Shown here: positions 8,311 to 52,861 of the stretch, piece by piece | Numbering within the stretch: position 1 is the stretch's first letter | Layout: each line of letters opens with the position of its first letter | Assembly: GCA_964013565.1 (NCBI GenBank) | Contig: CAXGWU010000001.1 | Coordinates: forward strand, 93,601 to 157,600 | From: an uncultured Oligoflexia bacterium | Lineage (GTDB): Bacteria; Bdellovibrionota; UBA1018; UBA6935 | Reading direction: 5' to 3' | Length of the DNA stretch: 64,000 nt | Notes under the pieces: generated by a model | The model's database searches: none | Told to the model about the DNA's origin: nothing | What the model saw: only the letters and a program-made list of their open reading frames with translations | Position numbers and translations under genes: made by a program

Positions 8311-9795
8311 TTATCGTTTACTGTTAAAAGACAAAAATACACGATTGCATTTTAAATTTTCCCAGCTTTTTTGGTGATCTTGATAAGATTTCACAAGGTT
8401 ATCCAGTATTCTGTTTTTGAAAGGAGCCTTTTCAGAGAAAATTCTTGTTACTTTTTTGCTTGTCATTGAAATTTTTTGAATCAATGTAAAAAGGGTTACC
8501 GAAGGCTGAACGTCTCTTAGAACAGTATTGAGAATGTTTTCAAATTCTTTAGAGGAGATTTTCTTGTTTTTTCGTGCTACGGCTGTTTGTTCAAGAACGA
8601 GAAGAGGGATCCAGCGGTTTTTATAGTTTTTTGAAATTCTATGATAGAATTCAAAAAATTTAGAAATATCTTGTTTTTTACTTTCTTTGTTGAATGGTTT
8701 GTAAAAATTAGCAATTTCAGAATTGATAGATTCAATGTTTATTTTTTCTTTTTCCATTTTTAAAAGTAAATCTTCTTCATAATTCTTTTTTGAGATTCTT
8801 TTTTTTGTCCTATTCTTGATTTTGAATTGGTAGCCTAGCGCTTGAGCTTTTTTTATGACTTCCGCTAAAAAAGAATCGCTTGTAACAAGTTCGTAAATCG
8901 CTTTTTGATATCTAAGGAGATTCATTCTTACATCCGAAGACTTGGGGCCGAGTGACTTGGCGTAGCTATGATTGTTTTTATCTGTTGTAATTTCTGCAAA
9001 GCTTTGATTCCACGCGCCTACATAATGTTCATATCCAACTTCAGCAAACTTTGTTGAGACTTGATCATAGTAGTGAAGAGGAACGATGTTTTTATGATAT
9101 TCTGTTTGATCTGCTTGTTCTAAATTTTTTAATGTAGTTTCTTGAATTTTTCTTTTTTCCTTTAGTTCATATATGGATTCTCGAAAGGTTGGGGCAACTA
9201 CGCCTATAAAATAAAGTCGAGAAATGATGTCTTTGAGGTTTCCCCCGGAGTTTTCGTAGAGTCGGTACATTGCAGCAAGACAAGCTCGTCCTTGTCGTCC
9301 ATTTCCTTTAGAAACGGTGTCTACGAGTATGAGAGGTCTACCATTCATTCCATTTTTTAAGTCAAACCCTTTGCTTTTAAAAAGGCTATAGATTTGTTCG
9401 TCTGTAGGGTTGAATTTTGGACTAAAATCAGGATCCATTCCAAAAGTTGCTTTACTCATCCCCACTCTAATTACTTTATTGGGTTCTCCGATGCTATTGA
9501 AAAACCCTTCAATAATATCTGAAAATATTAGACTATCTCGACCTAAGAAGCCAAAAACTGCGTCTGGATAGATAAAAGATAAATGAGCGATAAATCTTGG
9601 TGCCTCTTTTTCTATAAATTGAAACCAATCAGGAAAAGGATTGTTTCCAGGAATTTCTTTTAAAACAGATTCCACCTTCTTCATAGATGGTCTTACGTTT
9701 TGATTGATTAAATTATTAATATCTTGGTCTTTTTGAGTCCAAGATAACATAGGAGAAAATAAGATAAGTAAGGCAATATATATTTTTGTTTTCAT
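8311..9795 (-). CDS. secreted hypothetical protein; member of an FxGRD / hhhDxSxxG paralog family
   Basis: Signal peptide MKTKIYIALLILFSPMLSW. The N-terminal region (…FGFLGRDSLIF… LILVDTVSKGNGRQGRACLAAMYRLYE…) is alignable with 13234-15192 and 16931-18463. Last gene of the seven-gene secreted operon. Confidence 0.55.
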   Translation of the reverse strand: MKTKIYIALLILFSPMLSWTQKDQDINNLINQNVRPSMKKVESVLKEIPGNNPFPDWFQFIEKEAPRFIAHLSFIYPDAVFGFLGRDSLIFSDIIEGFFNSIGEPNKVIRVGMSKATFGMDPDFSPKFNPTDEQIYSLFKSKGFDLKNGMNGRPLILVDTVSKGNGRQGRACLAAMYRLYENSGGNLKDIISRLYFIGVVAPTFRESIYELKEKRKIQETTLKNLEQADQTEYHKNIVPLHYYDQVSTKFAEVGYEHYVGAWNQSFAEITTDKNNHSYAKSLGPKSSDVRMNLLRYQKAIYELVTSDSFLAEVIKKAQALGYQFKIKNRTKKRISKKNYEEDLLLKMEKEKINIESINSEIANFYKPFNKESKKQDISKFFEFYHRISKNYKNRWIPLLVLEQTAVARKNKKISSKEFENILNTVLRDVQPSVTLFTLIQKISMTSKKVTRIFSEKAPFKNRILDNLVKSYQDHQKSWENLKCNRVFLSFNSKR

Positions 9796-9797
9796 TT

Positions 9798-11288
9798 CTA
9801 TTTTCCTCTCATGAGTGCAATTGCATCTTCTTCTGAATCAATAAGATGAATTCTTCTTTTTAACCATTCAGGGTAATGATCAGAGATTAAGTTTTTAAGT
9901 AACGGTTTATAGAATTCGCTATTTATAAAAGCTAATTGAGAGCGCTTATTTGGATTTCCAGAAAAATCAACAAAAGTTGTTGCTAGTTCTTTCATCGTTC
10001 CATTGCCTCCAGGTCCTACAAAAATAAGGTCTTTGTCGTGCAGTAAAAAAGGAATTCGTGTTTCATAATCCATTGATTCAATGACAAATCTTTTATTGCT
10101 AAAAGAATAAGATTTCCCAATGATAATATCGATGGCAGTTCCTCCATTATCAATGCTTGCATTTGCTGCGGCTTCCATGAGGCCACCCCCCCCACCGCTT
10201 GATAAGATATATTTATTTTTTGCAGAAACTTTAGCTACGAGTTGAACTAGTTGTCTCCAGCGATAGTCAAACGAACTAGACCCAAAAAAAACCGCTTTTT
10301 TATGATCTTTCAAACTTTCAGAAATATAATCTATATCTTCAATTCCAGCTAAGTAATTAGAGATGATTAATTTAAAACTATAATCAAATTGATGACTAAA
10401 CTTTTCTTCGTTGAAAGGAATAATGCTTTTATATCTATTGGGACCCGGAGTAATAAAACTTAAGTCATTTTTAATTTTTAAGTATGAAGACTTAAATTTT
10501 CCTAATGCTTTGAAATTTAAAAAGTCTGAATCCCATTCATTTTTATAGTTAATGAGGAAATCTAGTTTATCGATTAAATGAAGAGCTAAGGCTGTAACAG
10601 AACGAGTATCACCTACTGACTTTCCTATAGAAAAAGCTTTAAGTCTTAAGTAAGGATTTTCAATTGCAATGATGTTTTCATTTAAATTTTCTTTATTTGG
10701 GTCCGCAGTAATGCCTACTCCAAGTTTCCCTAATGTTTTTTGTATATCTTTCGCTGATATTGAATCTGCATCGTAGAAAAATATTTGAGAAAAATTAGAT
10801 AGTGTTTTTTTGAGTGAATTGAGATCGACTGTGGTTGGGTAATCGGTGGTTCCAAAAAGAAGAGTGTATGGATTCATATTGGAAAACGAATCTAACCACT
10901 TAAATCTCATAAGATCTGAAAGAAATGATTTTGATTGATCTTTTCTATCTAATTTAAAAATTTCCTCTATTGATAATTCTTGAGGTTTACTACTTTTTGA
11001 TGGAAGTTTTCTATTCTTGTTTTCGTAATGACTATTGGAATAACCTTTATAAGAATATGGGCTGTCTGTATCTAGACTTGTAACTGGAGATTGATAATCA
11101 AATTGGTATGTGTTGTTAACAGCAATCTCACTTATATCAGGAACTTCATCAATTTTAGGTGGTTTGATTCCGTGAATTCCAAAAACTAAAGCGCATTGAG
11201 AAGAAAATAAATGGTCCAAATTAGAAGTAGCGTTGGATGTTAATGTATAGATGATACCTACTATAGATATCAAAAAAAGATTTTTCAT
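9798..11288 (-). CDS. secreted protein with a C-terminal LOG-family (TIGR00730-like) domain
   Basis: Signal peptide. The C-terminus carries AVFFGSSS… ILSSGGGGGLMEAAANASIDNGGTAIDII… RIPFLLHDKDLIFVGPGGNGTMKEL, which matches the LOG GGGxGLMxA and PGGxGTxxE motifs. Overlaps the upstream gene by 4 nt. Confidence 0.65.
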   Translation of the reverse strand: MKNLFLISIVGIIYTLTSNATSNLDHLFSSQCALVFGIHGIKPPKIDEVPDISEIAVNNTYQFDYQSPVTSLDTDSPYSYKGYSNSHYENKNRKLPSKSSKPQELSIEEIFKLDRKDQSKSFLSDLMRFKWLDSFSNMNPYTLLFGTTDYPTTVDLNSLKKTLSNFSQIFFYDADSISAKDIQKTLGKLGVGITADPNKENLNENIIAIENPYLRLKAFSIGKSVGDTRSVTALALHLIDKLDFLINYKNEWDSDFLNFKALGKFKSSYLKIKNDLSFITPGPNRYKSIIPFNEEKFSHQFDYSFKLIISNYLAGIEDIDYISESLKDHKKAVFFGSSSFDYRWRQLVQLVAKVSAKNKYILSSGGGGGLMEAAANASIDNGGTAIDIIIGKSYSFSNKRFVIESMDYETRIPFLLHDKDLIFVGPGGNGTMKELATTFVDFSGNPNKRSQLAFINSEFYKPLLKNLISDHYPEWLKRRIHLIDSEEDAIALMRGK

Positions 11289-13237
11289 TTTATGTCCCCA
11301 ATAAAATTTTTCTCACATTTTTCCTCAATATCTCCATTAATTACTTCTTTTATAAATGTTTTTTTTATGTGAAGAGATTGAGCCCATTTATTTCCGAGTT
11401 CATCTAAATAGAGGAGTCTAGTTTCGGTATCTGTGGTTGTCGGAATGAGATGACCGTAGTACCAAAGGCTCCACGTTCCATTGTGAAAATATAAACTATC
11501 TGGAGTTAAACCGTGAATATATAGATTTAAATGAACTAGATGATCAAAAAAATCCGCAAGTGCTGTCCATGCAATTGTTTCATGAATTGGAACCGCTGCT
11601 TTATTTGAAAGCTCTCTTAAAGAAACTCCTTGTGGTTCATCTATCGCAACAAAATAAAGACTGTTTCTTATCTTAGAAACAATAATTCTATTCTCTTGTA
11701 GGTGCAATAGCTCATAGTATGAAGGTGTTCCTGGGTCAAACCTAAAGATCACTTGTTTTAAATTTTTTTCTTTTTGAATGATTTCATATTTTTTCAATTC
11801 TCCAATGTTCACTTTTTTTGGCGAAGAATTAATAAAAGGAGGCTCTTTTTTTATGTCATTATTTTCATAATTTAATTCATTACTTTTTTTTCGTCTTTTC
11901 TTTTTGGGACCTTTTGAATGATTTTGGAAGTTTTGTTTATCTAGTAATTCTTTCCAAAATAAATCAATTTCTTTTTTTTTGCTTTTAAGTTCTTCTCTTA
12001 ACCATTTTGTTTTTAGTTTGTTTGAGTATTCATTTAGAGTTCTATGTTTGCTGAAAAAAGTTCTAATTGGTCCGCTATCAACTATTTGCCATTCTTTTCC
12101 ATCAAAAATAAGATTGTCAGGGTTTAATCCGGAGACATAAATGTATTTTTCAGAAGCTTTAATGAAAAATTTTTCTAGTGCTAATTTTTTTGGGTTATTT
12201 TTTGTGTCTAAAATTTTTTCATCGAGAATCGCTTCTCTTAATCGAGTTCCTTCAATGAAATTCATAAGTAGAGACTTTTTATCTGTACTCCATTTCACAT
12301 TAACTGAAGACAGACCGTTTTTTCTCCATTCTTCTGATAGCTCTATCTGTTTTTTGAAACTTTTTTGAATATCCGCACTATCGTTTACTGGAACTTTCCA
12401 AGCCCATAGTTCTCCATTTGAGTCCTTTAACTGATGAACTCTACCTGTTTTTCCAACGCCTACGGCTTCTTTTTCTAATGAGTAACCTTCCGGAATATCG
12501 ACCTCTTTAACTGAGTTAATGAGAGCTAATAATTTTTCCCAGTTTTTTTCTTCAATCAAATCTTTGGCATTTTGTAAGAACTTTCTCCTTTGGCTAACTT
12601 CGGTAATGGTATTGGCTTTTTTTAGAACTTGAAAATGAATTGGTTCGAGATCAATTTTTGGGAAAACATACCGACTCAATCGCCTGAGAGTTTTTGTGTT
12701 TGCTCGGCTTGTGATAATCCAAATTAATTCAAAATCATCTCTATAAGAGGATAGAGGAAGGATATGTTTTGTAAAAGATTCTAATTCATCTAATGGTATG
12801 ATCGCTGCTGTATAACGAAGAGAAGGAAGTAAATTTTTTTCATTACTTTGAGTGAATAGTTTAAAGAGTGTAGAAAAGTTATAAATTTTTTTGTCGCTTA
12901 AAATGCCAATTAGAACATTGTTATTGTTTTTTCCTTTTTCTGAATGCAAATATTGATTAATAATGATGTCTCTTAGACAGAAACTTTCTGTCGCTAGTTT
13001 AATATAAAATTTATCAGGTGGGTTGTTTTGTGATTTAATGATTTCATCAATGATAGCTATATTCATCGCTTTATATTCATTGCTTTTCGCCAAAGATAGT
13101 TTTTTTATAACCTGAGAAATCGCCTCCCACTGTTGATTTTCGATTAGTTTTTTGAGTCGATGTGGAACCACGGTTTGAGCATGTGCTGGTATGATAAAAA
13201 ACAGACAAGCTAAATATAAGAAAATTTGTTTTTTCAT
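11285..13237 (-). CDS. secreted protein with tandem protein-kinase-like domains (atypical, possibly pseudokinase)
   Basis: Signal peptide. Domain 1: Gly-rich loop VGVGKTGRV, Lys in WAWKV, loop SGLNPDNLIF, and DSG. Domain 2: HGLTPDSLYF. Both lack a canonical HRD Asp. Confidence 0.5.
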   Translation of the reverse strand: MKKQIFLYLACLFFIIPAHAQTVVPHRLKKLIENQQWEAISQVIKKLSLAKSNEYKAMNIAIIDEIIKSQNNPPDKFYIKLATESFCLRDIIINQYLHSEKGKNNNNVLIGILSDKKIYNFSTLFKLFTQSNEKNLLPSLRYTAAIIPLDELESFTKHILPLSSYRDDFELIWIITSRANTKTLRRLSRYVFPKIDLEPIHFQVLKKANTITEVSQRRKFLQNAKDLIEEKNWEKLLALINSVKEVDIPEGYSLEKEAVGVGKTGRVHQLKDSNGELWAWKVPVNDSADIQKSFKKQIELSEEWRKNGLSSVNVKWSTDKKSLLMNFIEGTRLREAILDEKILDTKNNPKKLALEKFFIKASEKYIYVSGLNPDNLIFDGKEWQIVDSGPIRTFFSKHRTLNEYSNKLKTKWLREELKSKKKEIDLFWKELLDKQNFQNHSKGPKKKRRKKSNELNYENNDIKKEPPFINSSPKKVNIGELKKYEIIQKEKNLKQVIFRFDPGTPSYYELLHLQENRIIVSKIRNSLYFVAIDEPQGVSLRELSNKAAVPIHETIAWTALADFFDHLVHLNLYIHGLTPDSLYFHNGTWSLWYYGHLIPTTTDTETRLLYLDELGNKWAQSLHIKKTFIKEVINGDIEEKCEKNFIGDIK

Positions 13238-15192
13238 TTTTTAAGGTTTCCAGGTGTTCCAAATAGGATTTGACATGTCGAAGTACTGTTAGAACTAAAG
13301 CTCTTATTTTTACGACTGTCATGATAAAAGAACTCTTTTAAAAAATTCATATCTGAAAGCATTTCAGTTTGAGTTTTGTCTGTAAAAAAATAAGTATAAA
13401 ATCCTTTATTGAGACGTGGAGTGTAGTCTACATTAACAATTTGCTCAGCGTTATCGACCTGAAAATTTGCGGCTTTGAAGTCTAACCAAATGTTTTGTTC
13501 TGCTGCAATTTTTTTTGCGATAAGCCATTGTTCCAATACCTGGTTTTTTATTTTTTTCGGTATTTCTTCAATTGGATTTTGAGAATATTTTGCTTCTAAG
13601 TTTTTTCCGTCAAAGTAAGTTTGTTCTACAATTACCCCTGTTGGATGTGCATAAAGTATTTTTGCATGCCTAAAATTTGGATAATTTTTTAGAATTCTAT
13701 CTTGTGTCCATTTTTGCAAAAGAGATTTACGTGCATTTTTTGGGTTTTTTGTAATTTTAATAACTCTATTTTTATCACTTAAAAATACTTGTACATTTCT
13801 ACCTTCTCCTAGATATCCTTTTAACTTATAGAGGACTGCATTATTAGAGGTTAGAACCATTGGGTAATTTGGATCATCGCTTTTTTTGATTTCCAGAGAT
13901 GAAAAAAAGTCATTTGCTCCCTCTAATGGTTCCAGATATTGCCAATCTTTCATAGCACTGAAGCCTTTTTGATGGACTTCAGATATTTCCTGAAATAAGA
14001 GTTCGTTTTTGTTTAAGTCTTTTTTGTTTTTTCTTATTTTTTCTTGATTTTTAGTGGTCTTCTTTTTTACTGGAATAATTGTTTCAGCAAGTCGTAGATC
14101 AGATACTAGTCCAAGGAGTGATATAACTTTTTGAGATAGTTTTATAGGTTTGTCACTATAAATATGAAGTGACGGTTTTGTTTTAAATTTTAGTCCTGTT
14201 TGTATAAACTTATGACGATGCTCTAGTAGATTGTGAACATGATCAGCATCCCAGTGATTAATTGCTCCTGGAATAGCGATTTGAAATCGTTGAATAGAAA
14301 AAAAATAATCAGTTTCGGTGAGTTTTTTAATAGTCTCTGAAGAGAGTTCTTCGTTGTTCCTGGTGTAATTGTTGATAATATCTTTAAAAGAAGAGTTTCC
14401 ATCTACTCTTTTTGATCTCAAATATCTGAAATCTACAAGTTTCAGGAATTGAGTTGCTTCAGATTTATTTAGGTTTTCACAAATGGCTCTTAAAATTGCT
14501 CTGGGAATTTTTCCAGACATACTTGAATCCATAAATACTAAGCCATTTTTTAATAATCTCTCTTTTGTTAGTCCGATGGAATTTAATAAATGGTAAATTT
14601 CAGAAGTTTGATGGTTGAAGATTAAGTCTCTTATTTTCCTTGATACATTAAGGGTGTAAAGAAAATTTTTATCTATAGATTTTTTTAAAGAGATAAAAAG
14701 ATATGGAGCCGTAAAGTCTCTTCCTATAAAAAATAAATTTTTATTATTAAAATCTCTTTTGATTTCATTTTCTATTTGAGCGATTACAGGAATGATGACT
14801 TCTGTTTCGTATTCTTGAGTGTAACGAATAAGTTGATCTGTTATTTTTTTAGAATCAATTGAATCTAAAGAAACAACACCGATTTTTTTGTCTAATTCAA
14901 GAGCACTATTTTTAAGTTTTGAGCGTTTATTTGACCAATGAAAAAAGAGTTCATTGAAAAACTGAGTTTTTTCTTGAGTCGTTAGAGTTTTAACTTCTTC
15001 TAAAATTAAATAGATGTCATTACGAATTGACTCTAAAATATCGGTTTGAATCCATTTTTTAAGAAATTCATCGTAGCTATTAGAGTTTTGGGCTTGAAGA
15101 GCTGATTCATAGTGATTTTCTATTACATCGCTGGAAAATACATTAGTCTCAGTAAAGCAAAATAATAGAATAAATAAAATTAATTTATTCAT
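13234..15192 (-). CDS. secreted protein with an N-terminal FxGRD-family domain and a C-terminal protein-kinase-like domain
   Basis: Signal peptide. N-terminus has NLFFIGRDF… VFMDSSMSGKIPRAILRAICE, paralogous to 8311 and 16931. C-terminus has LGEGRNVQVF (Gly loop), VIKITK (Lys), DFKAANFQV (catalytic-loop-like D..K..N) and VNVDY. Confidence 0.55.
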   Translation of the reverse strand: MNKLILFILLFCFTETNVFSSDVIENHYESALQAQNSNSYDEFLKKWIQTDILESIRNDIYLILEEVKTLTTQEKTQFFNELFFHWSNKRSKLKNSALELDKKIGVVSLDSIDSKKITDQLIRYTQEYETEVIIPVIAQIENEIKRDFNNKNLFFIGRDFTAPYLFISLKKSIDKNFLYTLNVSRKIRDLIFNHQTSEIYHLLNSIGLTKERLLKNGLVFMDSSMSGKIPRAILRAICENLNKSEATQFLKLVDFRYLRSKRVDGNSSFKDIINNYTRNNEELSSETIKKLTETDYFFSIQRFQIAIPGAINHWDADHVHNLLEHRHKFIQTGLKFKTKPSLHIYSDKPIKLSQKVISLLGLVSDLRLAETIIPVKKKTTKNQEKIRKNKKDLNKNELLFQEISEVHQKGFSAMKDWQYLEPLEGANDFFSSLEIKKSDDPNYPMVLTSNNAVLYKLKGYLGEGRNVQVFLSDKNRVIKITKNPKNARKSLLQKWTQDRILKNYPNFRHAKILYAHPTGVIVEQTYFDGKNLEAKYSQNPIEEIPKKIKNQVLEQWLIAKKIAAEQNIWLDFKAANFQVDNAEQIVNVDYTPRLNKGFYTYFFTDKTQTEMLSDMNFLKEFFYHDSRKNKSFSSNSTSTCQILFGTPGNLKK

Positions 15193-16880
15193 CTTTTATT
15201 CCTCTTTTTATTAAAGAAATAAATTTCTTCATCTAAAAGGCCAAAGCTGAAGAGGGTCTCTATAGTGATTTTTAATTCAAAATCGTTTTTGACAAAATGA
15301 ATTCTATCTTTAATGAATTGCGGAATTGATGAGCTGTCGATTTGATTTTTTAAGCCACTGTAATAGTCATCACCCACAAAAATGATCTCTAATTTTTCTT
15401 TTGGGTTTTCTAGAAGTTTTAGAATCGTTATCCAAAATTCTTTCATGGTTCCAGAGCCTCCTGGAACAAAAACAACAAGTTGTTTTTCGTGAAGAAGGAG
15501 AGGGATTCGGGTTTCATATCCACTACTCGAAACGGTAAGAGAATGATGTTCTTTTTCTACTTTTTTTTCTGTTTTTAGAGTGTGTTTACCCGTGATAGGG
15601 ATCCCAACTGATGGAACATGAGATGATATTGCTGCAGTATTTGAAGTTTTCATGGCACCGCCAGCTCCGCCAGTCGTGATGCTAATATCAAGAGATCCTA
15701 AGGCGAGACCAGATTTGAAAATAAGGTTCTCAAAAGGATTCTCATCCCTTCCCGTTCCAAAAACTGCAGCTCCTCTTACTCCTGTTAAATCTTCTTGTCC
15801 GATTAGAAGTTCAGTAACTTCTTTGACGATATGATCAATTTGATAATCAGAAAGGTCTGAAAGAGTTATTTTTTTTGGTTTAAATTGTTTTGTAATTATT
15901 GGGAAAATTTCTGTCTCAACGTGAGGAGAGGTACGAATAGGCTCTCCTGCAAGGTCAAATTCTTGATTAAAGTAACTTTTACTGTAGATAGGAGATGAAG
16001 GGATTTTTTTAATCGCTGTAGTAACGGTTGTAGCTTGATCAAAAATAGGTATTTCTTTAGTTCGAACTCCCATGTTTATGTTCATAAGATCTAAGTCTTG
16101 TTTCCATTGATGAAGAGAAAAGTTCCATTCTTTTTTTGGATCAAAAATAATGTCTATTTCATTATTGAATAATCCCGCAAATCCAGTTGTGGAGTCAGGA
16201 GTTGTAATTATTTTTTCCGAGGTGTTAAATAAAGCCTGTGCTCTTAAGTAGGTGTTTTTAATGTAAACTTGGCCTCTTTGTTTTGTTGGTTGATTAGAGA
16301 TACCAAAAGATGATTTTTGAGCTAGAGATTGAATTAGTTTAGCGTAAGGACTATTTGATTCGTAGAGGATAAAATATCCACGAGAAATAAATTGAGAAAC
16401 TAATTCGGTCAATTCAGTTTGCATTTGAGGATCAGGCTGTGTTCCAGAAGTCCCTGCAAGAATCGTCACTGTTTGTTTTGAATTTAGTTTTTTTAATCTT
16501 TCTAGGTTGAGGTGATCTTGAATGTACTGACCTTCAGTAGTTAATAATACCAATTCAAGTGCTTTTAGGTTTTTTTCTCTGTTTGTTTTTTTTAGACGTT
16601 GAATCTCTGAAGTTATTTGAGCTATTTGCTTTTTTACCGATTGATTTTCTTTTTTTCCAGAATTACTAAAAATTTTTTTTAGTAATCCTCTTTGTTTTTT
16701 AGAAATTTTTTTAGTATTTAAAGACGTTAATTTTTTTTCTAATTCTTTAATCCGTTCTGACTCCTGATTTAGACTAGTTAGTCGTTCTAATGTGGATAGA
16801 CGACTTAAAAAATTTTCTTCACATCCGGCTAAAGAGAAGTGATGGGCAATTAAAGTTAAAATAATAATAAGTTTTTTCAC
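15189..16880 (-). CDS. lipoprotein with a C-terminal LOG-family domain
   Basis: Lipobox LAGC after the signal peptide. C-terminus has AAVFGTGR… ISITTGGAGGAMKTSNTAA… RIPLLLHEKQLVVFVPGGSGTMKEF (LOG motifs). Paralogous over this domain to 9798-11288. Confidence 0.65.
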   Translation of the reverse strand: MKKLIIILTLIAHHFSLAGCEENFLSRLSTLERLTSLNQESERIKELEKKLTSLNTKKISKKQRGLLKKIFSNSGKKENQSVKKQIAQITSEIQRLKKTNREKNLKALELVLLTTEGQYIQDHLNLERLKKLNSKQTVTILAGTSGTQPDPQMQTELTELVSQFISRGYFILYESNSPYAKLIQSLAQKSSFGISNQPTKQRGQVYIKNTYLRAQALFNTSEKIITTPDSTTGFAGLFNNEIDIIFDPKKEWNFSLHQWKQDLDLMNINMGVRTKEIPIFDQATTVTTAIKKIPSSPIYSKSYFNQEFDLAGEPIRTSPHVETEIFPIITKQFKPKKITLSDLSDYQIDHIVKEVTELLIGQEDLTGVRGAAVFGTGRDENPFENLIFKSGLALGSLDISITTGGAGGAMKTSNTAAISSHVPSVGIPITGKHTLKTEKKVEKEHHSLTVSSSGYETRIPLLLHEKQLVVFVPGGSGTMKEFWITILKLLENPKEKLEIIFVGDDYYSGLKNQIDSSSIPQFIKDRIHFVKNDFELKITIETLFSFGLLDEEIYFFNKKRNKR

Positions 16881-16930: not shown

Positions 16931-18463
16931 TTATTTTTTATCTATTTGTGTAAAAATTCGATTACATCCAGTTTTTGTAAGATAATCTGAGATGGTTTTA
17001 GTGTGTTCCGAAATTTTCCCTCCAAATTTGTCGGAGTTTTTAAATTCATCTTCTCTTTTTTCAAACATAGATCTGAATTTTTCATCGTTTTCATAAAGCT
17101 CCCGAATAGCTTTTAGTTGATCGTCAGAAAGAGAAGGAGTGTTGCCTAGGACATAACGATAAAGTCGTTTATAATCTCTTCCTTTAATTTTCTGAGAAGC
17201 TCTTGCTCTAGTGATAGCCTGCATAAATGGGACAATGATTTTGTCTTTAAAATCTGTATTTTGAAATTGCTTTAACCATTGAAGGTAGTGATTTCCGTTG
17301 TTTGAGAGTTTGTTTGTGATTTCTCCGGGTTCATTTAAAGATTGTTCTATTTCAAAAAGGTTTTTTAGATGTTCTTTAAGTTGTTCTTGTTTTTTCTCTT
17401 CTTGAAGAGCTAATTCTTTTTTTCTTTGTTTTTTTCTTTCATTGATTTGTTGTGACGTTAGTGATTGATAAAGTTTTGAATTTCCATCTAAATCAATTTT
17501 ATAGAGTTTTAGATATTCATCTAATTTGTCTTTAAATTCATTAGATTTAATGAGTTCGATAATTATATAAATTTCTTGTAAAACAGTTTTTTTTGAAATA
17601 TTCGAAAATTGCACGCCAGAAATTGGAATAAGTTTTTCGTTTATTTCTTTAAAACCTAGCCATGAATCATGCCACTCTGAAGTCCTATGATTTATCCTAA
17701 AAAAAGTTCCATAACTTGTGCTTAATCGTGGAACCGGTACGCCGTCTATATGAGATAGTGATGATACGTTTTCGAAAAAGTTTTCCTGATCAAAGTCTTC
17801 GTTGATAGTATGTTTTAGGTTGTTGTCGCTAATATTAACAAACGCAATTTTTCCAAGAAGATCTTTTGGGTCTTTTCCTAGATTTTTGTAGGTTTCATAG
17901 AGATATCTCATCGTTAGCCTGGATTGGCTTGCTTCTCCTCCTCCTCCTCCACTGGTATAAGTTGGGCTATAGCTACTAAAATCATAGAGAACCCAAGGGG
18001 CACTTTCTGTAATGGTATCGAAGTTAATGCCTAGAGACTGAGCATATCGAACAATGGTTTCTGAGGAAGAGTTTTTAAAACTTGGAGTACTTGCGTTGAA
18101 TCTTCCTGCGCGATTAGGCTCACCTCTCAGATAGTAAAACGCTTCCAGGGCTAGACTATTTTGGATGACATCTCTTCCAAGAGAAAAATATCTTCCTCCA
18201 GGAAAGGCTTTTTCAAAACTTACAATCATTCTGGCGATATTGTTTATAGCATTAGGGTAAGCATTAGCGATAAACTCTTGATTAAGCATTTTTTCATGAC
18301 TCGGCCATGGGTTGAGTACAGTGAGCATTTCTTCGATTGTGGGAACTGTTTTTTTTTGTACTAACTCATCAATTTGATTTTCTAATTGTGTTTGATCAGA
18401 AAAAGCAAAAGAAATGAAAAGAAAGTGGAGGCTAAAAAAAATAGATTTATTTATGAGTTTCAT
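16931..18463 (-). CDS. secreted hypothetical protein; FxGRD / hhhDxSxxG paralog family member
   Basis: Start chosen at the internal Met (MKLINKSIFFSLHFLFISFAFS signal peptide) so that it abuts rather than overlaps the Prs-like gene. Carries RYFSLGRDVIQ… WVLYDFSSYSPTYTSGGGGGEASQSRLTMRYLYE. Confidence 0.5.
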   Translation of the reverse strand: MKLINKSIFFSLHFLFISFAFSDQTQLENQIDELVQKKTVPTIEEMLTVLNPWPSHEKMLNQEFIANAYPNAINNIARMIVSFEKAFPGGRYFSLGRDVIQNSLALEAFYYLRGEPNRAGRFNASTPSFKNSSSETIVRYAQSLGINFDTITESAPWVLYDFSSYSPTYTSGGGGGEASQSRLTMRYLYETYKNLGKDPKDLLGKIAFVNISDNNLKHTINEDFDQENFFENVSSLSHIDGVPVPRLSTSYGTFFRINHRTSEWHDSWLGFKEINEKLIPISGVQFSNISKKTVLQEIYIIIELIKSNEFKDKLDEYLKLYKIDLDGNSKLYQSLTSQQINERKKQRKKELALQEEKKQEQLKEHLKNLFEIEQSLNEPGEITNKLSNNGNHYLQWLKQFQNTDFKDKIIVPFMQAITRARASQKIKGRDYKRLYRYVLGNTPSLSDDQLKAIRELYENDEKFRSMFEKREDEFKNSDKFGGKISEHTKTISDYLTKTGCNRIFTQIDKK

Positions 18464-18464
18464 T

Positions 18465-19850
18465 TTATTTAATCTTTCTGCGTATAAATAACGTTTTACA
18501 AAGTGGAGTCTTTTTTTCTCCTGAAAATACAGACTGTAAAGTTTCCGAAATTTCAAAACCTAAATTTAAAACTGATATATCTGGCTGAGTAATGTTAAAT
18601 GAATTCGTCACAACCATGAGATCAATGTCTGGCGAGTCAATTGCTTTTTGAGCGTTTCCTGCAAGATGGCTAACAACACCAAATATCTTATTTGCACCAT
18701 GCTTTTTAAGAAACTCTGCTGACTCGGCAAGTGTTCCTCCAGAGGCAGTTTCGTCATCAACAATCGCTACAGTATGCCCTTTTACAGAGTCTCCACTAAT
18801 CCCGAGAATACGAGTCTCTCCAGTGAGAGGATTTCTTTTCTTATTGATAATTGCGAGGGGTAGGTGAAGTTCTTCTGCATATAAAGTAGCATCTTTTTGA
18901 AAACCAGCGTCAGGAGAAACGATAATAGAAACTCCCAGTTTCTTGAGTTCTTTATTGATTGTTTCTCTTCCGTTGATTTCAAAAACAGGGATAGAAAAAA
19001 AACCTACACTCTGAGGTGCATGCGGTCTTACAATTGTTATTGTTTTTACTCCTAGTCCCTCAATGAGGTCAGCAGTGAGTCTTCCTGTTACAGTAATTCC
19101 AAATTGATCTATCTTATCTGATCGAGCATAAGGAAGGTAGGGAGAGATCAGGTGAACTTGTTGCCACTTTGATTGAGTGCTATATATTTTATGTAAAGTA
19201 TCAAAAAATGATTTGTTTATTGGAGACTCAAGAGAAGATACATAAAATATATTGTATCCAGAGAGCTTTTTATTGTTGGGGTTCCATTCAGATTCTTGAA
19301 TGACTGGGATATTGAGTTGTTTTGATAAGGTGTCTCTCAATGAAGGGTTTGTGTCTCCTACAATTGCAAACTTTTTTTTAAAATTTTTTGTTTTTGTTTG
19401 ATATTCTGGAAAGTCATAATCTTGGTTTGCAATACGGTAAGATTCCGCCCCCGAAATTTTGAAAAGTTTTAATACAAAAGTTGAAGGTAAGGATTCAGAT
19501 TCAAAATGAACGGATATTGATAAGGCACCCATTGTTTTAGCGGTGCGAACTTTAATGAGAGCTTCCATAAGAAGGTCATCATGATCTTCAATGTTGTTTG
19601 GAATATACAGAGTTAGTTTCTGATTGATAGGATTTTTTAAAAATCGAACAAAAGTATTTCCGTTGCTAAACTCCGTTGTTTTTGTCGGAAGAATTTTACT
19701 TTCAATAGTTTCAGAATACGATTGAGTCTTTGCCTCATATCCACGAATTCCAACAAGCCATGGCTTTTTAGAAGCGATACAAACATTTGAAAAGCTAAAG
19801 CTTAAAAGAAATAAAAGTCCAAATTGTATTTTTTTTTGTGCCCCACCCAT
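18465..19850 (-). CDS. secreted ribose-phosphate pyrophosphokinase (Prs/PRPP synthetase) homolog with an N-terminal extension
   Basis: Signal peptide MGGAQKKIQFGLLFLLSFSFSNVCIA. Matches Prs landmarks: FAIVGDTNPSLRDTL…, ISPYLPYARSDK (cf. PYFGYARQDRK), RPHAPQSVGFFSIPVFEING (cf. DLHAxQIQGFFDIPVDN), IVSPDAG, AIINKKR, and PRPP loop VAIVDDETASGGT. The first ~130 aa look like a degenerate extra Prs N-half. Confidence 0.7.
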   Translation of the reverse strand: MGGAQKKIQFGLLFLLSFSFSNVCIASKKPWLVGIRGYEAKTQSYSETIESKILPTKTTEFSNGNTFVRFLKNPINQKLTLYIPNNIEDHDDLLMEALIKVRTAKTMGALSISVHFESESLPSTFVLKLFKISGAESYRIANQDYDFPEYQTKTKNFKKKFAIVGDTNPSLRDTLSKQLNIPVIQESEWNPNNKKLSGYNIFYVSSLESPINKSFFDTLHKIYSTQSKWQQVHLISPYLPYARSDKIDQFGITVTGRLTADLIEGLGVKTITIVRPHAPQSVGFFSIPVFEINGRETINKELKKLGVSIIVSPDAGFQKDATLYAEELHLPLAIINKKRNPLTGETRILGISGDSVKGHTVAIVDDETASGGTLAESAEFLKKHGANKIFGVVSHLAGNAQKAIDSPDIDLMVVTNSFNITQPDISVLNLGFEISETLQSVFSGEKKTPLCKTLFIRRKIK

Positions 19851-21606: not shown

Positions 21607-22719
21607 GTGGGGGCATTGTTAATGCGATTTCTTCTTATCGTATCTTTTTTATTTTTAAGTCAAAATAGTTTTGCTCATCCGATGATGATTCGTCATGGGT
21701 ATACGACCTGTGTGACTTGTCATCGATCTCCACTGGGTGGATCTTTGTTGACTGATTACGGAAAAGGAATTGCAGCATCTCTTTCGATCTCTCCTTCAGA
21801 ATATGATCCTGAAGAAAAGAGTTCATTTGAAAAAACGCTTACACTAAATGGTCGCATTCAGCATGGGCTCCAGTTTCGTGGTGTAGTTTTAGATAAGAAT
21901 GGTGAATGGTCGGCCTTTCCGATGCAACTTGATTATTTAAATTTTATTGATTTTGGAAAAGGACATGGTTTTCAGTTCGAAGTAGGGCGAACTCCAAATC
22001 GAAGTGATGGGACTCGTTCTTTTTTAAATACGCTTTTATTGAGACGAGCGGTTTACTCTTATCGTTGGAAAAAGAAGAAAAGAGGAGATCAAATTACTAT
22101 TGGTAGAGACTACCTTCCTTATGGAATTAGAATCGATGATCATCGTGCCTATATTCGATTTAGAAATCGACAGGATGTCAGTGATGTCGTTTCCACAATT
22201 AGATATGATTTTTGGAGAGAGAATGATCAATCTACCTTTTTTTTAGGGGCACCGAGTGGACAAGAAGTATCTCAAAATGGAGAGTGGTCTTTAGGGGGAA
22301 GATATGAGTATTATTTAGATTCTCACTTTTCTCTTGGGGGAATTGGTCTTTTTGCTCACTCAGAAGTATTAAATAGAACTCTGCTGGGTTTATTTTCTCG
22401 CTATGGAAATGAACAATATGGAGTTCTTTCCGAATATGATTTTAATTTTAGAAATATTTTAAATCGATCAGATGAATCTTTTTTTCAGCATTCGTTTTAT
22501 CTCAGGCCATTTTATTATCCAGTTGAATTTTTGGAAATCGCTTTTATTGGAGAACTTCTTTATGTTCAAAGTCCTTTTTTGGAGTTTAATAAGCGACTTG
22601 GTCTGGGGTTAGATTTGAAAATTTTAAGAAATCTAACTTTTAAAACAGACTTTAGGAAGGCGTGGAATCAATCTCTTTCTGAAGATTTATTGATGGCACA
22701 ATTGTTTTTGAATTTTTAG
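21607..22719 (+). CDS. secreted protein with a single CxxCH heme-binding motif; possible outer-membrane beta-barrel
   Basis: Signal peptide. CVTCH motif near the N-terminus. Alternating aromatic/hydrophobic pattern and a C-terminal …LFLNF (terminal Phe) consistent with an OMP beta-signal. Confidence 0.45.
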   Translation: MGALLMRFLLIVSFLFLSQNSFAHPMMIRHGYTTCVTCHRSPLGGSLLTDYGKGIAASLSISPSEYDPEEKSSFEKTLTLNGRIQHGLQFRGVVLDKNGEWSAFPMQLDYLNFIDFGKGHGFQFEVGRTPNRSDGTRSFLNTLLLRRAVYSYRWKKKKRGDQITIGRDYLPYGIRIDDHRAYIRFRNRQDVSDVVSTIRYDFWRENDQSTFFLGAPSGQEVSQNGEWSLGGRYEYYLDSHFSLGGIGLFAHSEVLNRTLLGLFSRYGNEQYGVLSEYDFNFRNILNRSDESFFQHSFYLRPFYYPVEFLEIAFIGELLYVQSPFLEFNKRLGLGLDLKILRNLTFKTDFRKAWNQSLSEDLLMAQLFLNF

Positions 22720-22728: not shown

Positions 22729-23403
22729 ATGAAGAAGTTTTCTTTATTGCTTTTTTTATTCGTTGGAGCTTGTGCCAAAACGGGAACGGATGAAGCGTCT
22801 CAGTTTGGAGGACCTTCACAATCAGAATTATTGAATCGTCTGAAAGAAGTTTCCGCATATGAGAGAGTTCAAATGATTGTTCAGGAGAAATGTATTAATT
22901 GTCACACGGGATTTCATCGATCGTGGGCAAAGAATTTGCAAAAATCAATTTCAAAACGAATCAAGCCAGGAGATCCTATTCGATCCTCTCTTTATTGCAG
23001 AACAGACCCCAATTGTTCTCGGCGGTCGTTAATGCCTCTTAATTCAAGTCCTCTCAGTGATATTGAGAGGACTTATATTCGAGATTATATTTTGAGTTTA
23101 GAACAAACAGATCCAGATCCCGTTCCTCCTCCGGTTCTTAAGAAGGTGAGTTTTGTCGATTTGAAAAAAACGGTCTTAGATGTGAGTTGCGCTAAATGTC
23201 ACGGAGATCCAAGTCAAAATACAGAGGGTTTTGACCCTCCTCTTTATACTTATGATCAGGTAAAAGAGAAAATTGAGCTTGTGATCGACCGAGTTCAAAC
23301 GGCTAAAGACATGCCTCCAGAGTGGGATGATGAAGCTGTTTTCCCTTCGGAAAAACAGAGAAGTCTTTTCTTTCAATGGAAAGAGGGAGGATTTCTTCCT
23401 TAA
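22729..23403 (+). CDS. diheme c-type cytochrome lipoprotein
   Basis: Lipobox (FVGAC) and two CxxCH motifs (CINCH, CAKCH). Starts 10 nt after the upstream gene. Confidence 0.6.
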   Translation: MKKFSLLLFLFVGACAKTGTDEASQFGGPSQSELLNRLKEVSAYERVQMIVQEKCINCHTGFHRSWAKNLQKSISKRIKPGDPIRSSLYCRTDPNCSRRSLMPLNSSPLSDIERTYIRDYILSLEQTDPDPVPPPVLKKVSFVDLKKTVLDVSCAKCHGDPSQNTEGFDPPLYTYDQVKEKIELVIDRVQTAKDMPPEWDDEAVFPSEKQRSLFFQWKEGGFLP

Positions 23404-27887: not shown

Positions 27888-30800
27888 ATGGCTCATCAGA
27901 AAAATTCAGATCAAAAAAAGTTTGAAAAACCACGTCACTGGGTAGCTCTAGAGGAACTTTCAGAGAGTTATTGGGGTGATGGAGGGTCACAGGAAAAGAG
28001 AGGGCAAGAGTTTCTTTTTAAACCTGTGGAAACGATAGCAAATATAGACAAAATTGATTCCAAAGGAATGGCCAGACGGGATTTTTTAACTGTGATGGGC
28101 GCTTCGATGGCCATGGCTTCTTTGTCTTGCGCAAGAAGACCGGTTTCAAAAATCATTCCCTACGTTAATAAACCAGAAGAAGTAACTCCTGGGGTACCTA
28201 ATTTTTATGCTTCAACTTTTGTTGATGGAACAGCTTCAACTGGAATTTTAGTGAAGACTAGAGAAGGTCGGCCCATTAAACTCGAAGGAAATCCTGATCA
28301 CCCTACAAGTTTAGGGGCGTTAAGCGCGAAGGCTCAAGGTTCGCTTCTTGGATTGTATGACCCAGATCGATTGAGAGCACCGCAGAAGGTTCAGTCTTTT
28401 CGAACCGCTCCGATGACGTGGTCTGAAATTGATCAGACCGTTGTTTCTCGATTAAAAAGTCTTGCTGTTGGAGATGGAGGGGTCCGTTTTTTAACTGCTC
28501 CACTGGTGTCGCCGAGTGCATCTCGACTGACTCAGGATTTTTTACAGGCGTTTAAAAATGCAAAACATGTGGAGTGGGATGTCGAGTGTTTCGATGATTT
28601 AAGGCTTTCACAAAAAGACAATTATGGAACCGACTCTATTCCAAACTATCACTTTGATCGAGCAGATGTGATTGTCTCTTTTGGTGCCAACTTTATTGAT
28701 GGATGGCTTTCTCCAACTGAGTATGCAAAAGCATGGTCAAAAAATAGAAAAGTAAAAAGTGAAGATTCGGCTCAGGCAAAAATGTCAGAGACTTATGTGT
28801 TTGAGTCAACCATGACTCCAACAGGAAGTAATGCAGATCATCGTTATGCGATTGCTCCGGGGGATGAGCTGAGTGTGGCTGCTGCAGTTGCATATGAAAT
28901 TGCTCGTAAAGCTGGAGTGAGCACTTCTGCTTTTTCAGAATATAGCCCTGAAGCGGTTGCTGCAGCGGTGGATGGTTTTTTAACGGCCAAGGATATTAAA
29001 AAAGTAGCGAAAACGTTGTGGGCTGCGAGAGGACGTTCTTTGGTTGTTGGTGGATCTTTGAATGCTTCAACTAAAAACGCTCATGCACTTCAGGCGACTA
29101 TTAATTTTCTGAATTCGACGTTGGAAAATGAAGGAAAGACAGTCGATGGAACAGGTGATGTTTTTACTGTCGGTGGAAGTTCTGAAGATTATTTAAAATT
29201 AAAGAAAGAGATGGCTTCAGGGAAAGTTGATCTTTTAGTTATTTCTGGACTGAATCCGGGGTACATGGATCCGACATGGGAAGCTGCTGTTGCAAAAGTT
29301 CCTATGGTTTTGGTAGTTACTGACCGCGTTGATGAAACAGCAAAGTTAGGTCATTATGTTCTTGCTTCTCACCATGCTCTTGAGGCTTGGGGAGATGTTC
29401 AAGTTCGAAAATCAATCATGAGTTTGGTACAACCAACCATTGCTCCTTTAGGTGACACTCGTTCCTATGAAGATCTTCTTTTAAATTGGGCTTCGAAAGC
29501 AGGTTTAAGAGTAGGAACATTAACTCAATCTTATCTTTCTCAAGAAAAAGAACCGACTACTCACACTTACTTAAAGTACTTTTGGAAAAAAGAAGTTTAC
29601 CCTGAGTGGGGACATTCTGAAGGATTCGAAATTTTTTGGGAGAACACTCTTCGGAAAGGTGTTGCGAATCGAACAACAAAACAAGGAGTTCGTAAGTTTA
29701 GTTGGGGTCGAACAAAAATTCCTTCATTGAAAAAAAATTCTGCAATGAAGCTTGCCCTTTATGAAATGGCACATTATGGGGATGGGGCTCATGCAAATAA
29801 TGCTTGGCTTCAAGAACTTCCGGATCCGGTGAGTTCTATTACTTGGGATAATTTTGCAAACATTGCTCCGTCTACGGCAAAAAAGATGGGAATTCGTCAA
29901 GATGATGTCATTGAAGTGACTTCAGGTTCGCTTCGAATGGAGCTTCCGGTGAATGTCCAACCGGGGATGCATCCTCGAACGATTTCAGTGGCGACTGGTT
30001 ATGGTCGATTTGCGGCTGGACGAGTTGGAAATGGAACAGGAGTGAATGTTTATCCATTTGCTTCTTGGGATGAGGAAGTTACTTTTTCTGGACGGGAGAT
30101 TGATATTCGTAAAACAGGACGTCGGTATCAATTGGCTGCGGTTCAAGGCCACCACCGTACAGAAGGAAGACCGATCATTAATGATATTACTTTAGAAGAA
30201 TTTCAAAATAATCCAAAAGCGGAAAATCATACAGACCCTCATTTGAGGTTAAAAACAGTCCCTACCATGTGGACTCAGCACAAATATCCTGGGTATCGAT
30301 GGGGAATGGCAATTGACTTAAATTCGTGTACGGGGTGTGGAGCATGTGTTGTTGCATGTCAGGCCGAAAATAATATTCCAGTTGTTGGGAGAGATCGGGT
30401 TCGGGTAGGACGAGAGATGCATTGGATTCGTGTGGATCGATACTACGCGGGATCTGAAGATCAACCTGATGTCGTTTATCAACCCTTGATGTGTCAGCAT
30501 TGTGAGAATGCTTCTTGCGAAACGGTGTGTCCGGTACTTGCCACTGTTCATGGCAGTGAAGGTTTGAATGAGCAAGCCTATAATCGATGTGTTGGAACTC
30601 GATACTGTTCGAATAACTGTCCTTATAAAGCACGTCGGTTTAACTTCTTTGATCATTGGAAGGATTATAAAGATTCAATGAATCTTGTGTGGAATCCCGA
30701 TGTGACGGTACGTTCTCGAGGAATTATGGAAAAGTGTACTTTCTGTGTACAAAGAATTAATTCTGCTAAAGATATTGCGAAAAAAGATGGGAGACGAAAG

Positions 30801-31016
30801 TTGCGAGACGGAGAATTAAAAACCGCTTGTCAACAGACTTGCCCGACAGACGCAATTACTTTTGGAAATACCAATGATGCAAACTCAATGGTTTCTCAAC
30901 AGAAAAAAGAGAAGCATGTTTTTCATTCTCTTGAAATTTTAAATAACTTACCGCAAGTGTCTTACCTTACTAAAGTAAGAAACAAAGAAGAAGGGGCTCA
31001 TCATGGAAAGCACTGA
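27888..31016 (+). CDS. actB: alternative complex III subunit ActB (fused molybdopterin-oxidoreductase-like and Fe-S domains)
   Basis: Tat motif [17 protein letters not shown], a complex-iron-sulfur-molybdoenzyme-like large domain, and C-terminal ferredoxin motifs [39 protein letters not shown]. Confidence 0.85.
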
Positions 31017-32376: not shown

Positions 32377-32929
32377 TGCTCAAATATTAGAGGGAGTTGT
32401 TGGATTTTTTGATGATCCTGAAACAACTCTAGAGGCGATGAAAAAAGTGACGGAGGCAAATTATGAATCTTATGATTCTTATACTCCGTATCCAATTCAT
32501 GGAATGGACGATGCGATGGGACTGAAAAGGTCTCCTCTTCCTTGGATTACTTTAGCGGCGGGTATTGCTGGAGTGTCCTTGGCTTTTGCGCTTCAGTATT
32601 GGACTTCTGTCGTTGATTGGCCTGTGAATGTAGGAGGAAAGCCTTTTAATTCTTGGCCGGCATTTGTTCCAGTGATGTTTGAGTTAACGATTTTGTTTTC
32701 TGGGATTTTTACGTTACTTGGACTTTTAGGGCTGTGTCGACTTCCAAATACTGGAAGGAAAGTCATTGATCCTTCGATTACTCGAGATCGATTTGCAATT
32801 ATGATCGATTTACCTAAAAAAGTAAGAAATTCTTCTTGTAAGCCATTTGAGGAGAGTGAAGTCACTCAATTCTTACAGTCTTTGGGAGCCAAGGATGTCC
32901 GAAAAGTTTATGAAGAAGGGTGGTTCTAA
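32366..32929 (+). CDS. actD: alternative complex III subunit ActD
   Basis: 187-aa protein with a central TM pair, in the conserved position between actC and actE. Confidence 0.6.
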
Positions 32930-33499: not shown

Positions 33500-33500
33500 G

Positions 33501-39600: not shown

Positions 39601-39809
39601 TGGAAGGCGACTATATAACAGTTGACCACAATGAAAAGAGAATTTCTCATGCGCTTTTAAAGAATACAAAAAAGTCATCATTAAAAAAAACGACGTAAAA
39701 CGTTGACTTAGAGAGGTTTAAAAAATAGAAAATGAGTTCAACCTAAAAAAACTAAAGAAAGTTTTAGAAGATGGACGTCTTGCAGACAATAGAGCGCGGA
39801 GTAAAAGTG

Positions 39810-41669: not shown

Positions 41670-41680
41670 AGGAGACAGAT

Positions 41681-43282: not shown

Positions 43283-43285
43283 TCA

Positions 43286-43930: not shown

Positions 43931-43943
43931 GGCGAGGAAAAGC

Positions 43944-52649: not shown

Positions 52650-52861
52650 GGAGTTTTTATAACGCAATAAGTCATTGTTTTCAATGAAGAAGGTTCGTAG
52701 GGCCTTTGATTCAAATTTCAGGTTCGACCCATGCATTTATTTGAAATTACTATTAAAATTGTAACGATTTAGTCTGGAACTTCGAATAAGTTCTATTACA
52801 GGCGAAAAATAGTACTTCTAAAAAGGAAAGTTTGTTTCGATTGACTCGATTATCAATCTTT

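Follow-up and report, generated by a model that had tools for sequence, protein, structure and literature searches.

The 64,000-nt window analysed here (by which the whole stretch is meant, not the gene of interest alone) contains, at 18465..19850 on the minus strand with the stop codon included, an ATG-initiated open reading frame (ORF) for a 461-aa protein that resembles phosphoribosyl pyrophosphate (PRPP) synthase and is predicted to be exported; the protein is called PrsL below. The favoured reading, to which we give about an even chance, is that PrsL would be a Sec-exported, catalytically competent PRPP synthase (Prs) heading a module outside the cytoplasm in which PRPP is both made and used at the expense of prey-derived ATP. 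Prs converts ATP and ribose-5-phosphate to PRPP and AMP and is commonly viewed as a housekeeping enzyme confined strictly to the cytoplasm.

Residues ~150-445 of PrsL are best regarded as a genuine but divergent Prs. The sequence scores 180 bits (cutoff 113) against TIGR01251, which like PF13793 plus PF14572 represents ribose-phosphate diphosphokinase, contains the Pfam domains Pribosyltran_N, Pribosyl_synth and Pribosyltran, and finds Prs chains as its best matches among PDB sequences (E~7e-29). The AlphaFold2 (AF2) model, built on 107 homologues, has a predicted local distance difference test score (pLDDT) of 93.2 and a predicted template modelling score (pTM) of 0.91, and consists of an N-terminal helix followed by three alpha/beta modules. 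Foldseek aligned this model with Prs structures at E~1e-21 and a target-normalised template modelling (TM) score of 0.80-0.84 over ~305-315 columns, which leaves ~120 residues of PrsL beyond the aligned core; the two-domain Prs fold, composed of an N-domain and a PRT-type C-domain, is present. The initial annotation, a reading of the letters without database searches, had matched PrsL to Prs landmark for landmark from residue ~150 onwards, and each of these comparisons agrees with it for residues ~150-445.

The catalytic machinery is retained as well. The C-domain (residues 269-445; 18516..19046, minus strand) carries the motifs HAPQ (H277/Q280), SPDAG (D314), NKKR (K337/R339) and VDDETASGGT (D365/D366). 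Across the 107 aligned homologues, whose identity to PrsL is no more than 32-43%, R243, D245, H277, Q280, D314, G316, K319, R339, D365, D366, E367 and G371 are invariant, and N336 and K337 are kept in at least 90% of the sequences; all of the Prs motifs quoted in the initial annotation are thereby present, invariant or nearly so. Alignments with the B. subtilis and E. coli enzymes place the conserved residues in the RF loop, the His-x-x-Gln motif, the PP loop, the catalytic loop and the ribose-5-phosphate (R5P) loop. The RF-loop Arg and Asp, HxxQ, the PP-loop Asp, the catalytic-loop Lys and Arg and the DD...GGT motif are accordingly all found in PrsL, with the R5P loop and the catalytic His and Lys conserved.

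Gene neighbourhood and gene fusion bear on the same question. In a second PrsL clade, the partner is a predicted exported protein in which an ITPase/XTPase-like domain is combined with an adenine phosphoribosyltransferase (APRT) domain. These NTPase-APRT proteins are encoded immediately upstream of PrsL in two loci (L004 and L014), and with 186.5 and 193.1 bits against NF002636 (cutoff 125) they qualify at the equivalog level; in one further protein (P0092), PrsL is fused to NTPase_I-T and PRTase domains. APRT consumes PRPP, and because this partner adjoins PrsL or is fused to it, PRPP would be both made and used locally; the arrangement argues for real PRPP production.

Since the catalytic and PRPP-loop residues are conserved in all 107 sequences, PrsL is inferred to be a catalytically competent PRPP synthase and not a pseudoenzyme, and the option of a non-catalytic protein, which the initial annotation had kept, loses its footing. 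A regulator of that kind would no longer make PRPP, but would only bind nucleotides or scaffold other exported proteins. It could draw on the fact that PrsL falls far below every Prs equivalog cutoff in NCBIfam (for example, 139 bits against 438 for NF002844), on the Asn that replaces the acidic residue of the DKRR loop and on the sequence DDETASGGT of the R5P loop. Retention of the known catalytic residues across sequences so far diverged from the query, together with the fusion to and adjacency with a PRPP-consuming APRT, makes this explanation very improbable.

The N-terminal part of PrsL is a duplicated Prs N-domain whose two copies have degenerated complementarily. Module 1 (residues 29-148, or 28-148 in the profile comparison; 19407..19766, minus strand) is the extra copy, and module 2 (residues 149-268; 19047..19406, minus strand) is the N-domain adjoining the C-domain. 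In hhalign comparisons with canonical Prs, module 1 reached 99.0% probability (E 3.6e-18) and module 2 reached 99.9% (E 2.7e-32), while the two modules matched each other at 95% (E 3.6e-8); module 1 compared with the PrsL C-domain gave nothing. The flag hairpin TEFSNGNTFVRF (residues 59-70; 19641..19676, minus strand), the equivalent of F35-S-N-Q-E39-T in hPRPS1 with N65 in place of E39, is preserved in module 1, which lacks the RF/catalytic loop, there being no conserved residues across the family at the expected PYxxYARxDK/RF-loop site. Module 2 has the RF loop (PYLPYARSDK, with R243/D245) and a truncated flag hairpin. The hairpin linker has a median length of 18 aa in module 2 and 30 aa in module 1, and of 26 aa in all 55 canonical Prs. 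Throughout the PrsL family the hairpin is confined to module 1 and the RF loop to module 2, so that the two elements that Prs combines in one N-domain are here divided between two copies. The initial annotation had described a degenerate N-terminal half-domain. Its likeness to Prs stands, far above what chance would give, but the segment is a whole N-domain copy without the PYxxYARxDK loop, and it is not merely degenerate, as F61, N63, N65 and V68 of the flag hairpin are selectively kept in at least 90% of the members. This retention points to an ATP-binding function of module 1.

In class I Prs, a subunit's ATP pocket is complete only with the flag hairpin of the subunit opposite; the donor is the neighbouring subunit of the 'bent dimer', which completes the adenine pocket, with flag E39 touching N6 of the adenine and RF-loop R96 touching N1 (10.64898/2026.06.01.728777; PMC5395218). 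Because the hairpin and the RF loop of PrsL are split between the copies and the flag hairpin of ordinary Prs works across subunits, module 1 may replace the neighbouring subunit within one chain and thus provide a single-chain substitute for the Prs dimer. A single PrsL chain would then form a complete ATP site without the usual hexamer, which would be an advantage for a protein that crosses the membrane unfolded and is diluted afterwards.

The N-terminus of PrsL resembles a Sec-type signal peptide (residues 1-26; 19773..19850, minus strand), in which MGGAQKK is followed by the hydrophobic h-segment FGLLFLLSFSFS and then by NVCIA, with a C-I-A/S cleavage-type site and predicted cleavage after A26 or S27; in the AF2 model residues 2-23 form a helix. 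Signal peptides were called by heuristics of our own (an uncharged hydrophobic N-terminal stretch, a charge bias and a -3/-1 site) together with conservation. An uncharged hydrophobic stretch is present in 106/107 PrsL members compared with 10/55 canonical Prs, so that on these heuristics PrsL departs from a cytoplasmic Prs lacking a signal peptide, and a -3/-1 cleavage-type site is found in 99/107 members. Over the 107 members the median h-segment measures 13 aa (interquartile range 11-16), mean net charge falls from +2.5 ahead of it to 0.0 over the next 15 aa, and the preceding side is the more positive one in 96/107; this pattern is indicative of classical N-in/C-out Sec topology, not of a reverse membrane anchor. 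The signal-peptide-like N-terminus noticed in the initial annotation is hence a property of the family. A Cys pair in module 1, present in 45-48% of the members, is consistent with an oxidising compartment. Export by the Tat route was rejected, as the n-region has KK and no twin-arginine motif, and a lipoprotein was rejected as no lipobox is present. A mis-called start, with the real one downstream of the hydrophobic segment, had also been considered at the outset. It was discarded, since there is no in-frame ATG, GTG or TTG from codon 2 to Met95 and Met95 falls within the conserved module 1; an AAGGA sequence lies ~12 nt upstream of the annotated ATG. Conservation of the signal peptide in 106/107 members likewise means that it is not an artefact of start calling.

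The hydrophobic segments could also anchor the proteins in the membrane, with the catalytic domains remaining in the predator's cytoplasm, in which case the genes would form an envelope-glycan (ribofuranose) unit with its own PRPP supply, similar to the capsule and O-antigen systems of the CriT/gPRT type. Such a placement would remove the question of the ATP source, and the known CriT/gPRT enzymes do work at the cytoplasmic face, where they draw on the PRPP of the cytoplasm (PMC10299916). A median h-segment of 13 aa is, however, too short for a transmembrane helix, and the charge bias, the -3/-1 sites and the lipobox of the operon product o563 all disagree with it; glycosyltransferase, flippase and ABC-exporter genes are moreover absent from the clusters examined. 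Retention in the cytoplasm is for these reasons considered improbable.

About 116 PrsL homologues of 455-490 aa were found, covering 85-97% of the query, and a sharp fall from 178 to 120 bits separates them from canonical Prs of ~313 aa. In a survey of one genome per species (185,579 species), long-form PrsL was present in 16 genomes, all of them metagenome-assembled genomes (MAGs), and all lower-ranked matches were ordinary Prs. Thirteen of the 16 carriers are titled Bdellovibrio, Pseudobdellovibrionaceae, Bdellovibrionales, Bdellovibrionia, Bacteriovoracaceae or Oligoflexia/Oligoflexales, and two bear the older labels Deltaproteobacteria and Proteobacteria; the named lineages span all three classes of Bdellovibrionota. 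The window itself comes from a 271-kb TARA Oceans scaffold, and a neighbouring protein was annotated by NCBI to a 'Bdellovibrionaceae bacterium' MAG. The host belongs to the predatory phylum Bdellovibrionota, to which the PrsL family was found to be restricted, and is probably a marine Bdellovibrionaceae predator. Variants of the protein were also observed: PrsL is fused to a Ppx/GppA phosphatase domain in one protein (P0109), a 678-aa form (P0083) has a C-terminal extension without a Pfam match, and 1002-aa proteins in two loci (L016 and L018, 8306-11314, plus strand) have a ~550-aa uncharacterised N-terminal region ahead of PrsL.

PrsL is the first gene of a seven-gene cluster on the same strand, running from 19850 down to 8311 (minus strand) with gaps of 1, 50, -4, -4, -4 and 2 nt in order; the thyA-folA pair lies divergently upstream. 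The second gene, o541 (16931..18463), starts 1 nt past the PrsL stop and encodes a predicted exported 510-aa protein with the GRD domain treated below, a putative CriT-like PRPP-dependent transferase. It is followed by o563 (15189..16880), a lipoprotein-type product with an LAGC lipobox and a C-terminal LOG/SLOG domain (motif VPGGSGTMKE), and by o652 (13234..15192) and o650 (11285..13237), in both of which a GRD domain is joined to a protein-kinase-like C-terminal domain. The o496 gene (9798..11288) encodes a paralogue of o563, likewise with a C-terminal LOG/SLOG domain (motif GPGGNGTMKE), and o494 (8311..9795), a GRD-domain paralogue of o541, is the last gene; all six are on the minus strand. 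By the same heuristics, all seven products have signal-peptide-like N-termini, and several of the six downstream products need ATP. A 541-aa ORF with a TTG start (16931-18556, minus strand), overlapping PrsL by 92 nt, was dismissed as an artefact that arises when the earliest available start is chosen; the true start of o541 is the ATG at 18463, which gives a protein with its own signal peptide and agrees with the gene call of the source scaffold. The o650 profile matched Ser/Thr kinases (down to E 4e-6), and the model of o652 matched kinases and aminoglycoside phosphotransferases. The GC content of the operon is 30-35% compared with 37-42% in the flanking chromosome (39.5% in the next gene, uvrD), a difference that could stem from acquisition by horizontal transfer or from a biased composition of exported proteins. 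A defence-system reading was rejected, as PADLOC gave only weak matches to ShosT and PsyrT at the level of the PRT loop. The promoter and terminator scan returned fewer sites than shuffled sequence, and no tRNA or Rfam features were found.

This gene content recurs elsewhere. LOG, GRD and kinase-like genes adjoin PrsL also in L002, L003, L005 (identical with L013), L006, L008, L009, L010, L011 and L012, and PrsL is adjacent to a LOG gene in 8 non-redundant loci. The homologous cluster of L003 includes a 335-aa RelA_SpoT-domain protein with a signal peptide (18330-19337, minus strand), a second ATP-dependent pyrophosphokinase that is apparently exported. In both o563 and o496 the PGGxGTxxE and GGxGxM motifs are intact, the scores for PF03641 and PF18306 exceed or approach the respective cutoffs and the NCBIfam match is significant, which places the domains in the LOG/SLOG group; the scores are nevertheless far below the curated cutoffs, that of the PpnN equivalog included.

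The pairing of PrsL with LOG proteins could be taken for a metabolic toxin. PrsL would convert ATP and ribose-5-phosphate to AMP and PRPP, and LOG would split AMP into adenine and ribose-5-phosphate, so that a self-priming cycle with the net conversion of ATP to adenine and PRPP would collapse the adenylate pool of the prey and kill it quickly. This stoichiometry, which is our own construction, follows known reactions of Prs and of LOG/PpnN-type enzymes; the adjacency in 8 loci would fit it, and so would the other ATP-consuming exported proteins of the clusters, namely the kinase-like domains and the RelA_SpoT protein of L003. In the sister clade, by contrast, PrsL is paired with APRT, which rebuilds AMP and makes no toxic combination. 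The cycle has no role for the GRD proteins, AMP is only a putative substrate of these LOG domains, and the domains score far below the PpnN equivalog cutoff. A toxin of this type is on balance rather unlikely.

The GRD module represents a sizeable uncharacterised family. A region of ~290 aa with invariant G-R-D and D-(S/T)-(S/G)-x-x-G is shared by o541, o494, o652 and o650 and was found in 247 representative clusters, either alone (~320 aa) or inside proteins of up to ~1100 aa; signal-peptide-like N-termini were present in 142 of the 149 representatives examined (P0128-P0276). In the window clade, the partners that accompany PrsL most constantly are GRD paralogues, 2-5 in number, and kinase-like fusions. 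Pfam and NCBIfam returned nothing for GRD proteins and their multi-domain relatives save one weak Pkinase match, and GRD profiles found nothing meaningful among PDB sequences; the search with GRD profile A2 recovered only itself, and that with o652 recovered 3 proteins.

Fold and motifs of the GRD module appear to resemble those of the CriT/gPRT group of PRPP-dependent ribofuranosyltransferases (Bcs3, 8a0c; T. composti, 7shg), its putative nearest known relatives, with which no similarity is detectable at the sequence level. Three loops, placed after successive strands, make up the PRPP pocket of CriT: loop 1 (S678-R679-D680), loop 2 (S707-R708..R712) and loop 3 (E818 with the 821-825 backbone) (PMC10299916). 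In GRD families, G-R-D follows strand 1, N-V-S-R-x-x-R follows strand 2 (in o652) and D-S-S-x-S-G-K follows strand 3. Strand 1 is not followed by a flap hairpin and generic HAD phosphatases are absent among the matches, both of which speak against a match to the HAD module. Unlike CriT/gPRT proteins, those of the GRD family have signal peptides and some have kinase-like fusions, and the HAD phosphatase, GT-B and SH3b partner domains of CriT/gPRT are missing. That GRD proteins are CriT-like PRPP-dependent transferases may therefore be taken as a supported lead, not as membership, and PRPP is a candidate substrate of the family.

A short C-terminal motif is shared by PrsL and the putative consumers of its product. 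The tail of PrsL (residues 446-461; 18468..18515, minus strand), which has low pLDDT in the model, contains C451-K-T-L-F, an example of a Cys-tail of the form C-x-x-hydrophobic-hydrophobic with the Cys 6-16 residues from the C-terminal end. The Cys-tail is common to window-clade PrsL, GRD and kinase-like proteins, which are non-homologous and predicted to be exported, and is absent from LOG proteins, NTPase-APRT proteins and the APRT-linked PrsL clade. It occurs in 22/27 GRD and kinase-like proteins as against 5/206 background ORFs (p 1.5e-21), and in 44/107 members of the PrsL family as against 0/55 canonical Prs (p 3e-10). In the window only four genes have it, all of them in the operon (minus strand): PrsL (18468-18515), o541 (16931-16990), o652 (13234-13290) and o494 (8311-8370); it is also found in L002-L012. 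The Cys-tail may be a sorting tag, or it may form a disulfide between subunits and so tie the PRPP producer to its consumers.

Taken as a pathway, the proposed module would operate outside the predator cytoplasm, where the ATP and nucleotides of the prey are accessible, in the prey cytoplasm or the bdelloplast. LOG-type phosphoribohydrolases would free ribose-5-phosphate from nucleoside monophosphates, PrsL would turn ribose-5-phosphate and ATP into PRPP, and co-exported transferases would use the PRPP, these being the four GRD proteins here and APRT in the sister clade. A compartment that holds another cell's ATP is suggested because PrsL, the kinase-like proteins and the RelA_SpoT protein of L003 need ATP and carry export signals; the prey cytoplasm or the bdelloplast is most plausibly that compartment, and delivery into the prey would follow. 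Of the suggestions made in the initial annotation, a Prs acting where the ATP of another cell exists is thus the one favoured here, given a predatory phylum and six downstream genes whose products are also predicted to be exported, several of them requiring ATP.

The same enzymes might serve nutrient harvest only, remodelling soluble nucleotides of the prey, in the bdelloplast or periplasm, for import; no acceptor would be phosphoribosylated and the role of the GRD proteins would be unrelated to PRPP. PrsL and APRT would, for example, convert adenine, ribose-5-phosphate and ATP to 2 AMP, while bases and ribose-5-phosphate would be released by LOG. What the sister clade offers with its APRT partner and its PrsL-APRT fusion is classical salvage chemistry, the LOG motifs are intact, and Bdellovibrio reportedly takes up intact nucleoside monophosphates (Ruby et al. 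1985 and Rittenberg & Langley 1975, as cited in PMC7529429). Harvest would, however, leave the 2-5 GRD paralogues and the kinase-like fusions, the most constant partners, unexplained, as well as the likeness of GRD to a PRPP-dependent transferase, and the LOG and APRT reactions oppose each other and occur in different clades. Nutrient harvest as the sole function therefore seems unlikely, if still worth serious consideration.

Several points weigh against a PrsL that is exported and active on prey ATP. ATP and ribose-5-phosphate are not normally present outside the cytoplasm, so that the model needs access to the contents of the prey. Export of PrsL is deduced from our heuristics and from conservation. 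The catalytic loop reads NK(K/Q)R and not DKRR, and the flag Glu (E39 of hPRPS1) is Asn (N65); Asn is also found at this position in the nearest canonical Prs and in the Thermus enzyme. No cultured Bdellovibrio-like organism or type strain occurs among the 16 genome matches. All of the evidence for the PrsL system is computational. It shows the homology, the conserved catalytic residues, the complementary decay of the two N-domain copies, the signal-peptide features, the synteny and fusions and the taxonomic restriction; export, enzyme activity, pseudo-dimer geometry, use of PRPP by the GRD proteins, the site in the prey and the acceptors are all inferred from it. The fullest form of the proposal, a complete exported PRPP economy in which pseudo-dimeric PrsL would feed a new family of secreted CriT-like transferases, some coupled to kinases, that phosphoribosylate molecules of the prey or bdelloplast, with co-sorting or linkage through the Cys-tail, is a tentative suggestion and less probable than not.

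Ordinary respiratory genes also occur in the window. Directly downstream of thyA-folA, two predicted exported proteins (21607-22719 and 22729-23403, both plus strand) have the CxxCH haem-binding motifs CVTCH and CINCH and are probably c-type cytochromes; the former protein has no Pfam match. An alternative-complex-III-like Fe-S/molybdopterin protein, NrfD and cytochrome oxidase subunit I are encoded at 27888-34709 and 39771-44741 (plus strand), and ResB/CcsA-type cytochrome c maturation genes at 3055-6119. On the basis of these respiratory and maturation genes, the window is considered ordinary chromosome, not a mobile element. Three further large ORFs of 1175, 906 and 505 aa (54960-58487, plus strand; 50016-52736 and 48550-50067, minus strand) have signal-peptide-like hydrophobic N-terminal segments and no Pfam match.

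Searches of the literature brought up neither a PRPP synthase of predators that is secreted or periplasmic nor the PrsL operon, and no secreted precedent for an ATP-dependent biosynthetic enzyme like PrsL, and a 2026 pan-domain survey of >35,000 PRPS sequences makes no mention of Bdellovibrio, signal peptides, secretion or fusions (10.64898/2026.06.01.728777). If the model holds, the PrsL system would be without a described counterpart. Predators may run ATP-driven biosynthesis on prey contents, beyond hydrolysis, and an exported PRPP economy, if true, would be previously unknown biochemistry of predation. The divided N-domains make PrsL a natural experiment in Prs architecture, in which one chain would take the place of an inter-subunit ATP site, of use for understanding and engineering the assembly and regulation of PRPS. 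The GRD proteins are a large uncharacterised family predicted to be exported, and the PrsL system offers concrete candidates for new antibacterial effector activities.

Among known systems, the Sec-signal nucleases Bd0934 and Bd3507 of Bdellovibrio bacteriovorus offer a parallel, as they act on nucleic-acid material of the prey (PMC7925074); they are hydrolases and need no ATP, whereas PrsL is of an ATP-dependent biosynthetic type. The closest known relatives of o563 and o496 are LOG/PpnN phosphoribohydrolases (PF03641, TIGR00730), with which they share PGGxGTxxE and GGxGxM and from which they differ in their predicted export, in N-terminal regions of 330-370 aa that are uncharacterised and in scores below the curated cutoffs. 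PRPS-associated proteins and pseudoenzymes (PAP39/41; 2c4k, 2ji4) are, like PrsL, divergent Prs paralogues with insertions and detectable homology, but their catalytic features have been lost and they serve as regulators in the cytoplasm, while PrsL shows no such loss of catalytic or substrate-binding residues and is predicted to be exported (10.64898/2026.06.01.728777). The nearest structures are those of class I Prs, namely Thermus thermophilus PRPP synthetase II (7pn0, 5t3o), PrsA of M. smegmatis (5mp7) and the enzymes of E. coli (6asv) and B. subtilis (1dkr). PrsL has the same two-domain core and the YAR(S/Q)D, HxxQ, SPDxG, (D/N)K.R and DD...GGT motifs, and shares the 'FxNxN' flag motif with Thermus-type Prs; it differs from class I Prs in scoring below all equivalog cutoffs, in its predicted cleavable signal peptide, its Cys-tail, its operon of predicted exported proteins and its third domain, the extra N-domain, which places the flag hairpin and the RF loop on separate copies.

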